From: a virus
Lineage: Duplodnaviria > Heunggongvirae > Uroviricota > Caudoviricetes
Direction: 5' to 3' (one strand)
DNA: 16,457 nt
Virus record (IMG/VR): IMGVR_UViG_2526164603_000008
The position numbers are program-made. Shown piece after piece: positions 3,001 to 6,000 of the stretch. How positions within the stretch are numbered: position 1 is the stretch's first letter; each line of letters starts with the position of its first letter.

Positions 3001-6000
3001 TTTTTACGTCAGATTCTTTTGGGATTGGCTTGCGTTTATTTCTGGAGCGTTTCGTTGGAAGGTATTTGCAGTTTTCGCAGATGATGTCGGTGATACTTCG
3101 TCGCTGTCGCCTCATGCCGCCCTCCTGACGCCCTGCCCGATCGCCATCAATGCCGCTTTGGATACAGTAGTAAACATTCGTCGAGGACTGATGAACGGTC
3201 GCCAAATCAGCAGCATGGAGCCTTTGCTGTTTCCCTTCTTCTCCAGCCCTGTCGATGGTTCGATAAAATTAATCCGTCCATCAGTGATGATGCGAACTTC
3301 GTCAACACTCTCCAGAGCCTTGCTGAACCATCCGACTGACATATCCTCTGGCACAAGCATAACTACCGTCTGTCGCTGTTGTATGCACTGCTCAGCGGCT
3401 TTTTCCACCCACGGCCTGATATTGCTGTACGGTGGGTTATTCCAGATTGCACCGTGGCTTACCCACTCAGAATTGAGCGCGTCGTCGGCCTCAGTTAGCC
3501 AGTGAGCGCACAGAGCATTTTTGTCGCTCGCTGCCGAATCCAGCCAGAATCCAAACTCAATATCCAGTGCATCAAAAAGCCAAAGCGGCGTTTGCCAGCA
3601 GTCCTTGTCGTGTGCTGGCGTATTTGATTTGATAGTCATGCAGCCCTACCTTTTCGTTGTGACCATTCATACTCTCGCCGGGAGTCATCACTCCACCGCA
3701 CGTTGCGCTCTGAGCCGAACCAGAACATGATTTCGATAAGCTCAGTCATGCTGGCCTTCCGCATTTTGCTGGTACGCACGCCAAGCATGACAACGCCACC
3801 GTCGATACCAGGCACACTTCGTTGCTCCAGTTTTTTGGTCTTAAGCCACAGGGCAGTGAACAGGTCTTTCCAGTCTTCCGGCGCCAGCCGTTGACCATGC
3901 CATAGCACCTGACGCGAAACATCGTTCAGCATCGGCCACATACGGTCATTCTGCGCTTTGCTGCGCTTGGGTTCTTTAACGTGGACTTCGTGGGGTGACT
4001 TGTCGTCGATGGGTAGTGAGAGAATGGCGTCTATGGCGTTATTTCTGATTGCTTCGTTGCGAAGCAGAAAGGTTTGCTTCATCTCCTGCTCTCCGGTTCC
4101 ATTTTTCAGCCGCCGCAGCAACTGATGGTGCCCATGCCCCCCTGGCTTCACAGAGGTCACATTCTGCATAGCCCCACACATCAATATTTATTCCGGCCTC
4201 AACCCACAGACGAGCATTACCGCCGCAAAACGGACATTCTTTTAGCTTTGGCTGGGTTAATGATAGGTCGCTCATGCTCACTCCTTCACTTTAAATCCAG
4301 ACTCCGGATAATTCTGTTGCGCTGAAACTCATTGTTGAGTTTGAACAACCGTCGAAGAACACGGTCACGCGGATAGCGTCGTGCGGCAGGTGAATGCTCA
4401 TACAACTCATCAAGCGGCAAACTGGACGATGAACGATACCGATACCAACGCACCAACTCTTCACGAAAATTAGCCCTGACAAGCTCAGCTATCGTACTCA
4501 TTTCTTAAAGCCTCCAATCCCTCTCCCCCAAATAAAAAGGCCTGCGATTACCAGCAGGCCTGTTACAAGCTCAGTGATGTAGATGGTCATTGCTTCATCT
4601 CCCCTTCCATTTCATCAATGTCAACGTCATCAGGAAGATGGGAACAATACGCTGCTATACCATGATGATTTATCTCATACCCTTTGAACGTTACCATCTG
4701 GCGCGTAATCTCAACTTCGTTCAGGAATCCGCCATCGCATAACTGCCTGGCTATTTTCGATTTGGTCTGGATTATTGGTAGTGCCTGTTCTTTCAAAGCG
4801 TATGATATTTGTGCATCCCATGCCTTTTCGAGAATGGCTAATTGTTTTTTATTCATTTAATACTCCGTCACGTTTTCCTGTCGCCACGCCTCGTCATATT
4901 CCGATTTCGGCATATTGGCGATGTAGCTATATGGCGATCCTGATTCAAGTTGCAGGAACTGGTGCGATTGCTCGTCAAGGAACAACGGGACACCACCTTC
5001 CCAACCTTCGCCGTTACGTTGTTTTTCAAGCATCAAAACAGATGCCGGAGATGCCAGTAGCTGTTCGTCCTTCTCTGACATCTTTTCACCACTCTGAACT
5101 CTCTGTAACGCTCTCTCGCGAGCCTTGTTACGCCAGATGATGAAAAGGTTGTCTGTCAGGTCTGTTATCGCTCCAGAGCCTTTTACGTCCATTTTCCCGG
5201 TTGGTTTTTCTTCGCTGTCTCCTTTTCGCGAGTGAGTAACGAGAATGACGTGGGAGTTTGTTTTGTTTTTGAAGTCGCAAATCGAGTCAACAAACGCCTT
5301 CTGCCCGTTATAGTCATCGTCGCCTATGCCACATTTCATCAGGCTGTCGATGATGAATAACTGGATACCGTATCGGCGGCGAGCGTAGTCGAATATTTCG
5401 ATCAGCCTGTCGGCTTTCGCCGTTCCGGTCAGGCCAAACACCCAAAGTCTTTCGTCATAAAATTTAAATGCAGAGTCAATTTCCAGCACTGGCGGCATCT
5501 TGCAGCACGTCGCCTGACGGGTAAGGCGCTTAAGGAGAATACCAGGCTTCAGCTCAAGTGACGCGATGCACGTCTTCACACCCTGACGCATTGCCTCAAG
5601 TGCCATATGCCCGACAACCTCGGTGTTATGCGTCGCCACATATCCCCTGGTTACATACAGGTGGCGAGGGTGATCGACCATAATACACAAGCATTCTGCA
5701 TTGCCGATTTTTTCAACATTCCTGACGAATACCCCACAGCCCTCGAATCGATGCGCAGTTAATCTGCCATTGAGTCGTGGTGAACGGATGGCCTCCCTGA
5801 TTTCTCTTGTCAGTCTGATTCTTGCCTCGTATGAATCCATCCCATGCCGCTTATCGTCCTTGTATGTGTATGTCACGCCAGTTTTAACTCGCGTCCGGCA
5901 TGACCCGCCGAGTGAGTTAACCAGTTGAACAACCCCATTGCGCAGTTCTTCACTTGCTGAGGAAAAAACAAGCGTTCCATCTTTCTCGACATACCCATCC

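Follow-up and report, generated by a model that had tools for sequence, protein, structure and literature searches.

Organization of the tR2 region

The whole stretch of DNA that was analysed (16,457 nt, hereafter the window) is a Stx2a-converting lambdoid prophage having 99.9% identity to phage 24B. From the Pfam hits and the 24B annotation, cI is on its plus strand, and the genes on the minus strand are in the order cro, cII, O, primase-helicase, an 89-aa gene, ninA, DUF7301, lar, ninB and dam. The nutR site was mapped from 24B, and this mapping was checked against the coordinates of the cro, cI and N ORFs. The features of the region are as follows.

12891..13274, plus strand: N antiterminator gene, an ORF of 127 aa annotated as N in 24B
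9508..9537, minus strand: pR promoter (scan match at 9537..9510; position mapped from the -35/-10 annotation of 24B)
9198..9243, minus strand: putative nutR site, mapped from the 24B annotation
4587..4856, minus strand: upstream gene of 89 aa, function not known (phrog_2239), whose stop overlaps the ninA start
4599..4606, minus strand: Shine-Dalgarno-like sequence AAGGGGAG, 8 nt before the ninA ATG, in the last codons of the 89-aa gene
4590..4498, minus strand: ninA, 30 codons, product MTIYITELVTGLLVIAGLFIWGRGIGGFKK; matches PHROG 5907 and is annotated as ninA in the identical 24B sequence
4561..4538, minus strand: tR2 stem-loop, AGGCCTGC / loop TGGTAATC / GCAGGCCT; 8 bp, six of them G-C, with an 8-nt loop
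4530..4537, minus strand: tR2 U-tract TTTTATTT, which extends the T at 4538 and codes for Phe-Ile of NinA; identical in lambda
4518..4529, minus strand: conserved G-rich end of a 73-nt module, GGGGGAGAGGGA, coding for G-R-G of NinA (from the comparison of module boundaries)
4511..4515, minus strand: GGAGG in the phage-type-specific C-terminal tail of ninA, read from the sequence
4286..4501, minus strand: downstream DUF7301 gene, 71 aa (PF23975, E = 3.8e-26), whose start overlaps the ninA stop

The pR promoter, located ~5 kb upstream on the same strand, is the origin of the transcripts arriving at tR2. By analogy with lambda, N would modify RNA polymerase at the putative nutR site, resulting in read-through of tR2.

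On the minus strand, the T-run TTTTTATTT is directly 3' of the 8-bp GC-rich stem-loop. As this is the sense strand of the pR operon, the arrangement is that of an intrinsic terminator, a GC-rich stem-loop followed by UUUUUAUUU. The stem-loop has a folding energy of -16 kcal/mol, and the centroid fold retains the hairpin as its sole structure (-15.7 kcal/mol). A simple scan returned 27 terminator-like sites in the window as compared with 15.8 +/- 4.4 in shuffled sequences, and the 131-nt region around the hairpin is no more structured than its shuffles (z = 0.79). The scan and the fold are not distinctive by themselves; we consider the hairpin to be beyond chance because it is identical to lambda tR2 and is conserved and compensated in relatives. 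A bidirectional terminator was also considered and was rejected, as the plus-strand side of the hairpin leads into TGTTACAAGC and not into a T-tract.

Identity with lambda tR2 and conservation of the terminator

We observed that the hairpin and the T-tract are identical to positions 40,596-40,627 of phage lambda, which is tR2. The identity extends over 43 consecutive nt (100%), from the base preceding the stem through the stem-loop and the T-tract to the G-run, and GGCCTGCTGGTAATCGCAGGCCTTTTTATTT is the very sequence named 'lambda tR2' in termination studies. Lambda tR2 is a standard terminator in termination biochemistry. The original prediction placed a minus-strand hairpin with a U-tract (4530..4561) where lambda has tR2; the sequence turns out to be tR2 itself. 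Its location in the pR operon agrees with that of lambda tR2 as well: nutR and the replication genes precede it, and the nin genes and Q follow. With high confidence, we assign the element to tR2, an intrinsic (Rho-independent) terminator that belongs to the pR early-right operon, resides within the short gene ninA and is carried here by a Stx2a lambdoid prophage of the 24B/933W type.

The likeness to lambda includes the reading frame. Lambda 40,567-40,647 has the same ATG, hairpin, T-tract and G-run in a 26-codon ORF, which has ATGA overlaps with the ren stop and the ninB start. The start ATGACCATCTACAT..., the hairpin, the loop, the U-tract and the G-run are all identical in the two phages, 70 of the 73 module bases are shared (95.9%), and there too the module has an ATGA overlap at both ends and is placed between the replication and nin genes of the pR operon. 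A single conservative change, I9V, distinguishes lambda NinA from that of the window. The differences reside in the neighbourhood: the upstream gene is ren in lambda, whereas it is the 89-aa gene following the primase-helicase here; the downstream gene is ninB there and DUF7301 here; and the C-terminal tail is IGGFKK in the window (30 aa in total) as compared with KS in lambda (26 aa).

GenBank records of P22, HK620 and Nil3 have the same module annotated as a ninA CDS with a regulatory terminator feature inside, the terminator being named tR2 in HK620 and Nil3; these copies differ from that of the window only in their neighbouring genes and in a few codons at the end. Lahn2 is listed with ninA and the internal terminator in the search table, while the 24B record has only ninA annotated. 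According to the papers citing it, the presence of tR2 in ninA was described in 1982 (Kroger & Hobom 1982, as cited in PMC4824070 and PMC8022706), and one of these papers also describes ninA together with the chain of ATGA overlaps in the nin region (PMC8022706). For the identical lambda sequence, the literature shows that RNA 3' ends lie at the U-tract and that transcripts are released there. Hence, the tR2-inside-ninA arrangement is already known, being annotated in several phage records and dissected by experiment.

More distant relatives have a different hairpin at the same place. HK97 gp56 and the mEp506 'NinA' share the first 10 codons and the ATGA start with the window, their hairpin and U-tract start at the same codon as tR2, and their ORF is open for 32 aa, ending in the start region of the next gene. 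In contrast, their stem and loop, GGGGCTATT...AGTAGCCC with a 5-nt loop, are unrelated to those of tR2, and the peptide is only ~52% identical (GAIYTVALFYW...) and less hydrophobic. The HK97-type phages and one further locus, L079, have stems of their own at the same codon (-17.4 and -15.4 kcal/mol, respectively), and a U-tract comes after each. Comparing the two stems, we observed one double change from U-A to C-G and two changes on one side only, after which the bases still pair; such stem compensation amounts to few independent events. In the lambda-type stem, most point variants remain compatible with G-U pairing, C-to-T changes giving G-U pairs. These sequence comparisons support the view that the terminator would be under selection.

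Most contigs in the hairpin-anchored viral scan had already come up in the first one, so the sample has redundancy, and the bulk of it consists of E. coli and Salmonella prophages. When genome contigs were scanned with AGGCCTGC-N8-GCAGGCCTTTTT, a pattern without the loop sequence, at least 120 matches were obtained; among those listed, lambdoid relatives were almost absent, and the matches were unrelated Bacteroidota, Alphaproteobacteria and other terminators. The AGGCCTGC-type stem is a recurrent terminator design.

Translation signals of ninA and their conservation

A 30-codon ORF overlapping both neighbouring genes by ATGA had also been predicted, and this ORF is the known gene ninA. At its 5' end, ATGA (4590..4587) combines the ninA ATG with the stop of the 89-aa gene; at its 3' end, a second ATGA (4501..4498) combines the ninA TGA with the DUF7301 start. 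NinA matches the PHROG 5907 profile with E = 1.4e-17 over residues 1-26 (the profile has 27 positions), and no Pfam family was matched. The RefSeq pipeline does not call the ORF. The hairpin codons read G-L-L-V-I-A-G-L and the U-tract codons read F-I; the other two frames of the ninA DNA both have stops. The predicted energy of the SD duplex before the ninA ATG is -8.8 kcal/mol. Judged from its sequence, the GGAGG at 4511..4515 is likely to be the ribosome-binding site of the DUF7301 gene. The G-rich run, which in lambda is 5 nt before the ninB ATG, appears to be the ninB ribosome-binding site there.

The effect of ninA translation has been studied in plasmids. The start of NinA translation lies 30 bp ahead of tR2; it is active and 'not weak' (Li et al. 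2016; PMC4824070). Silencing of this start showed that ninA translation lowers termination at tR2 by ~10% only (PMC4824070). tR2 can be repressed by ribosomes near the polymerase when a stop codon is no more than ~27 nt away from the hairpin, and a halving of the upstream reporter expression was attributed to the ninA start (PMC4824070).

Among the 129 hairpin-anchored viral copies, 123 have the ATG, within its ATGA overlap, at precisely 30 nt upstream of the hairpin. An SD-like motif precedes the ninA ATG in 11 of 12 upstream sequence classes, representing ~7 unrelated genes, as compared with 15% of the control positions (Mann-Whitney p = 6e-7). At the other end, nearly all of the ~45 junction classes have a plausible start of the next gene between -23 and +6 nt from the end of the ninA stop codon. 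These observations support an ORF start that would be selected for translation. In codons 2-10, there are seven synonymous and five conservative non-synonymous types of change, against 74% non-synonymous expected (p = 0.017), a test that is underpowered with its 12 types and for which one out-of-frame control gave 6:6; the coding claim was not rested on it. The first 32 nt are near-identical even beside unrelated hairpins, for which a recent exchange of modules, and not selection, could be responsible.

The remainder of the frame is more variable. A change from L to Q in the middle of the hydrophobic stretch, inside the hairpin loop, is found in several contigs; singleton variants have a premature stop (20 aa) or frameshifts; and variation in the C-terminal tail, which tracks the neighbouring module, gives NinA lengths from 24 to 34 aa. 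These variants suggest that there is little constraint on the peptide itself. In locus L079, the ninA frame continues into the next gene. In some phages, an HNH endonuclease gene is inserted and separates the ninA start from the hairpin. These phages retain the ninA start upstream, where it opens a new hydrophobic frame of 34 codons devoid of the hairpin, both other frames being closed; six of the 129 viral contigs anchored on the hairpin, as well as phage 1717, have the hairpin directly after the HNH stop and no ninA start before it. The best 19-residue hydropathy windows are 1.5-2.2 for NinA of the window, lambda NinA, HK97 gp56 and the 34-aa hairpin-less form. Taken together, the comparisons speak for both layers, the terminator and the translated frame, and the HNH-split phages show that the two are separable.

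The ninA family is confined to lambdoid phages of E. coli, Salmonella and Shigella, and its DNA is nearly identical. Because the family is so narrow and its DNA so similar, selection on the NinA protein is poorly measurable. The 73-nt module is present in 1,972 of 5,426 complete E. coli genomes, with roughly 2,870 copies.

A terminator within a probably translated frame

It had been left open whether the peptide is real, with codons that double as a terminator, or whether the ORF is a by-product of the terminator sequence. We favour an ORF that is genuinely translated and whose codons double as the terminator, from the conservation of the SD-like motif and the plasmid data (PMC4824070); this evidence bears on translation rather than on a function of the peptide. 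The contrary case is that of a terminator only, where the frame is a by-product, perhaps touched by ribosomes, and neither translation nor the peptide is selected. The hairpin and U-tract codons would automatically yield G, L, A, V, I and F, and the W-G-R-G codons are the G-rich SD-like run. A by-product would also be in line with the hairpins that follow the HNH stop without the ninA start (6/129 contigs and phage 1717), with the continuing frame of L079, with the L-to-Q, premature-stop and frameshift variants and with the ORF being uncalled by the RefSeq pipeline. We nevertheless regard it as somewhat unlikely, since SD-like motifs stand before the ATG in ~7 unrelated upstream genes (p = 6e-7), the ATG keeps its distance of 30 nt from the hairpin in 123/129 copies and the ninA stop is nearly always at the start of the next gene. 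The remaining two frames are closed by stops, the HNH-split phages keep the ninA start with a new open hydrophobic frame of 34 codons, and the start site was active in the plasmid experiment (PMC4824070), all of which also argue against a by-product.

At the other extreme, NinA could be a functional small membrane protein, with one transmembrane helix and a basic C-terminus, whose coding sequence was co-opted for the terminator and which itself contributes to phage biology. A hydropathy of 1.5-2.2 in four versions of differing sequence, the hairpin-less form that is still open and hydrophobic with the other frames closed, and the few and conservative non-synonymous changes in codons 2-10 point in this direction. 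We consider such a protein improbable: there is no known phenotype, and viable lambda nin5 lacks the nin region including ninA; the length and sequence of the tail follow the neighbouring module; the mid-helix L-to-Q change is tolerated in several contigs; and the family has a narrow host range and near-identical DNA. Moreover, U-rich and GC-stem codons predict hydrophobicity anyway. Because these codons give hydrophobic residues, the hydrophobicity of NinA needs no selection, and we infer that it is largely imposed by them and does not reflect a selected membrane function. A further, still less probable reading makes the overlap itself functional, where the tR2-terminated transcripts would be non-stop mRNA for the ninA ribosome, recruiting tmRNA and speeding the decay of the upstream replication-gene message, and a real membrane micropeptide would be made only from N-antiterminated transcripts. 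Such a micropeptide would be reflected in the conservation of the first 10 codons and in the hydrophobic product that even the hairpin-less HNH variant keeps. The halved upstream reporter expression from the plasmid is compatible with the tmRNA/decay half of this reading. A leader-peptide attenuator, in which ninA translation through the hairpin would set the passage through tR2 as in pyrBI or trp, is very improbable. Like these attenuators, ninA is a short translated ORF overlapping an intrinsic terminator, and close ribosomes can repress tR2 (PMC4824070). Unlike them, it has neither an alternative antiterminator hairpin nor runs of regulatory codons; no alternative anti-terminator pairing appeared in the folds, where the terminator hairpin was the only stable structure. 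The effect of silencing the ninA start on tR2 efficiency is only ~10%, and in lambda tR2 is known to be overridden through antitermination by N; read-through would be under N control. The attenuator was rejected on the missing anti-terminator fold and this small effect of translation.

Returning to the favoured reading of a translated ORF doubling as tR2, pR transcripts (from ~9510, minus strand) without N modification at nutR would form the 8-bp GC hairpin followed by the U-tract and would be released ~5 kb downstream of pR, at the boundary of the replication and nin genes. N-modified polymerase would continue into DUF7301-lar-ninB-dam-ninE and eventually Q. Both the termination and the N-dependent read-through in this phage would follow by analogy with lambda. 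The same 93 nt would be translated: ribosomes ending the upstream gene would encounter the SD sequence and ATGA, begin ninA, translate the hairpin codons, the U-tract codons and the G-rich run, and stop at the ATGA of the next gene. In this way, ninA may function as a translational bridge that couples the chained early-right genes across ~75 nt of terminator. Most downstream genes, however, have their own SD-like sequence, which counts against the bridging role.

The discovery value of the locus is low, since the arrangement has been known from 1982. As RefSeq leaves ninA unannotated in ~2,000 E. coli genomes, scans will rediscover it. The 73-nt cassette, which consists of the ATG, a 30-nt spacer, the terminator and the G-rich ribosome-binding run, behaves as a portable mosaic unit that joins at least seven upstream genes to ~10 downstream genes. 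The comparative data lend independent support to an ORF start selected for translation, and tR2 in ninA is a clean case of a natural terminator lying inside a frame that is translated.

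The ORF and the terminator in the early right operon

From the sequence reading, the terminator scan and the folding, we observed that the original prediction had described the ORF, its ATGA overlaps, the hairpin and the U-tract correctly, coordinates included. The features are listed below.

9537..9510, minus strand: pR, first in the minus-strand order
4587..4856, minus strand: upstream 89-aa gene, whose stop shares an ATGA (4590..4587) with the ninA ATG
4590..4498, minus strand: ninA ORF, ATG to TGA, 30 codons, MTIYITELVTGLLVIAGLFIWGRGIGGFKK (sequence reading)
4561..4538, minus strand: stem AGGCCTGC, loop TGGTAATC, stem GCAGGCCT (terminator scan)
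4286..4501, minus strand: downstream DUF7301 gene, 71 aa, whose start shares an ATGA (4501..4498) with the ninA TGA

The stem has 8 pairs, 6 of them G-C, and is followed by TTTTATTT as far as 4530. The centroid structure retains this hairpin alone (-15.7 kcal/mol), and the local 131 nt have no excess of structure over shuffles (z = 0.79). A simple scan gave 27 terminator-like sites in the window compared with 15.8 ± 4.4 in shuffles, and is not decisive by itself. The scan's strongest site in the window was a 12-pair plus-strand hairpin (8837..8867), antisense to the pR operon and within the cII region, the position of the oop RNA terminator in lambda; a weaker site (8972..8947, minus strand) is close to it.

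The Stx2a-converting phages 24B, Stx2a_F451, Stx2a_F403 and phiXuzhou21 share 99.9% identity with the window, and Min27 shares 99.7%. The gene layout, obtained from Pfam matches and the 24B annotation, has a cI-type repressor and N on the plus strand, and pR, cro, a putative nutR, cII, O, a 968-aa toprim primase-helicase, the 89-aa gene, ninA, DUF7301, lar, ninB, dam and ninE in this order on the minus strand. This order puts the hairpin on the sense strand of the early right operon, ~5 kb from pR, where the replication genes meet the nin genes. The primase-helicase gene (4857..7763, minus strand) contains a 341-aa intein (aa 373-713, window 5625..6647) with Hint and LAGLIDADG homing-endonuclease domains; it interrupts the Walker A loop (...GVNGHGKA/CPLNEP...VATHN/TEVVG...), with the toprim domain on one side and the AAA_25 domain on the other. 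The window also has a perfect 795-nt inverted repeat (14263..15057 and 15663..16457; 100% complementary, spacer 605 nt), the second arm of which stops exactly at the window end. The 24B-type phages have no colinear match to window 15544..16457. The repeat may reflect a genuine inverted duplication, or else a fold-back artefact of assembly.

Lambda 40,567-40,647 aligns to the window from the ninA ATG through the run GGGGGAGAGGGA with three differences, two synonymous and I9V, while hairpin, loop and T-tract are identical. The match in position to lambda tR2, as originally proposed, is thus borne out, and the hairpin is almost certainly tR2, judged from this identity. The sequence GGCCTGCTGGTAATCGCAGGCCTTTTTATTT was found in 16 published papers and, where checked, is named there as the lambda tR2 terminator. 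Lambda ninA has 26 codons (MTIYITELITGLLVIAGLFIWGRGKS) and shares ATGA overlaps with the stop of ren and the start of ninB. The 30-aa peptide of the window matches PHROG 5907 (E = 1.4e-17) and no Pfam family.

Distribution of the module and earlier descriptions

Among 5,426 complete E. coli genomes, 1,972 contain the 73-nt module, from the ninA ATG to the G-rich run (window 4590..4518); it has 2,870 copies there, all at ≥90% identity, and is also present in ~415 phage records (Escherichia, Salmonella, Shigella). Its upstream neighbours are ren, a DnaB-like helicase, a toprim primase or small function-unknown genes. Separately, a genome-contig scan found AGGCCTGC-N8-GCAGGCCT followed by TTTTT in at least 120 unrelated bacterial genomes, including Bacteroidota, Alphaproteobacteria, Vibrio and Lactobacillus; the matches are frequently near-palindromic and hence found on both strands. 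Given this spread, the stem does not mark lambdoid phages; it is a terminator design that recurs.

The tR2-in-ninA arrangement is already known. The GenBank records annotate ninA with an internal terminator feature, noted 'similar to phage lambda' (P22), ninA with 'terminator tR2' (HK620) and NinA with tR2 (Nil3); Lahn2 has the pair as listed in the search table, and 24B, identical to the window here, has ninA annotated. Li et al. (PMC4824070) place the NinA translation start 30 bp upstream of tR2, citing Kroger & Hobom 1982 and a lambda ribosome-profiling study, and PMC8022706 includes ninA in its list of nin genes, with an account of the ATGA chain. Since the pair is annotated and described in these sources, our observation is a rediscovery. 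NCBI PGAP (RefSeq) leaves ninA uncalled in identical sequence, e.g. locus L003 (1811..1903), as in most of the ~2,000 E. coli RefSeq genomes, and several hand-curated phage records call it.

Hairpin, frame and probable translation of ninA

As originally proposed, we compared hairpin and frame among relatives, using viral contigs sampled in two ways: with the first eight ninA codons as anchor, and with the hairpin as anchor. In HK97 gp56 and its relatives the first 10 codons are kept and a different stem follows, AGGGGCUAUU / AGUAGCCCUU, with a 5-nt loop (-17.4 kcal/mol) and then UUUUUUAUU; the HK97 frame remains open for 32 codons. Compared with the HK97 stem, a third version (locus L079, -15.4 kcal/mol) has one U-A pair replaced in a compensatory way by C-G, and two one-sided changes that preserve pairing; C-to-T variants of the lambda-type stem produce G-U pairs. 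The hairpin thus appears to be under selection. The frame, too, usually persists: the ATG is exactly 30 nt 5' of the stem in 123 of 129 hairpin-anchored copies.

The strongest support for what is probably selected translation lies outside the ORF. Directly 5' of the ninA ATG we observed 12 distinct sequence classes, from about seven unrelated genes; in 11 of these classes a Shine-Dalgarno-like motif lies 6-9 nt 5' of the start codon (predicted duplex -5.9 to -11.6 kcal/mol), compared with 15% of random positions of the same loci reaching -5 kcal/mol (Mann-Whitney p = 6e-7). In the lone class lacking the motif, the search pattern had matched unrelated sequence by chance. At the 3' end (~45 junction classes, about ten downstream genes) a candidate next start is nearly always within -23 to +6 nt of the end of the stop codon, mostly as ATGA, GTGA or 8-nt overlaps. 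Of the change types in codons 2-10 of the hairpin-anchored sample, 7 were synonymous and 5 non-synonymous but conservative, against an expected 74% non-synonymous, a weak signal (p = 0.017); one out-of-frame control gave 6:6. In plasmid experiments the ninA start was 'not weak': the start accounted for a halving of upstream reporter expression, its silencing restored expression, and ninA translation cut tR2 efficiency by only ~10% (Li et al., PMC4824070).

In the most likely account, tR2 would halt unmodified pR transcription and be read through by N-modified polymerase, and ninA would be a short, genuinely translated frame carrying ribosomes over the terminator cassette from ATGA junction to ATGA junction; a function of the peptide is possible but unsupported. 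Three alternatives concern the role of the ORF only, and each could hold alongside the tR2 identification. That the terminator alone matters and the ORF is meaningless is unlikely, given the starts and junctions flanking the ORF. Much of the peptide corresponds to RNA elements: the stem-loop takes up codons 11-18 (G-L-L-V-I-A-G-L), the U-tract codons 19-20 (F-I), and the conserved GGGGGAGAGGGA, which in lambda is 5 nt upstream of the ninB ATG and looks like the ninB ribosome-binding site, falls on codons 21-24 (W-G-R-G). The tail (IGGFKK here) varies with the downstream module and here includes the GGAGG of the DUF7301 gene. Codons 1-10 are the sole part lacking an RNA-level explanation; their 30 nt fix the spacing from the preceding stop codon to the hairpin, a distance that tunes termination efficiency, with a model reach of ribosome repression of 27 nt (Li et al., PMC4824070).

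It is still less probable that ninA is a functional membrane micropeptide. The best 19-residue hydropathy windows of four versions (1.5-2.2) are in the transmembrane range, but hairpin and U-tract codons give such residues regardless. An attenuator role for ninA/tR2 is very improbable.

Separation of the terminator and the frame

The terminator and the ninA frame can be separated, and the frame also has exceptions. Singleton variants have a premature stop (20 aa) or a frameshift in ninA, and several contigs have L-to-Q at the loop codon. In L079 (993..1322) the frame has no stop and enters, in frame, a 109-aa zinc-ribbon-like protein with its own ATG 24 codons into the fused frame. The separation is seen in phage 1717 and in 6 of the 129 hairpin-anchored copies, where the TAA of a 203-aa HNH endonuclease gene is flush with the first hairpin base (L013 6334..7079; L006, which is phage 1717, 289..952; also L099, L258, L251 and L252). 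In L013, where the upstream side is visible, the ninA start is retained 5' of the HNH gene and opens a new 34-codon hydrophobic frame, MTIYITELIAGLSLLMVLTVYIIKYILYANKKTN, which lacks a GC hairpin and overlaps the start of the HNH gene. At such loci the published distance rule (PMC4824070) predicts that tR2 would be repressed by ribosomes terminating at the abutting HNH stop.
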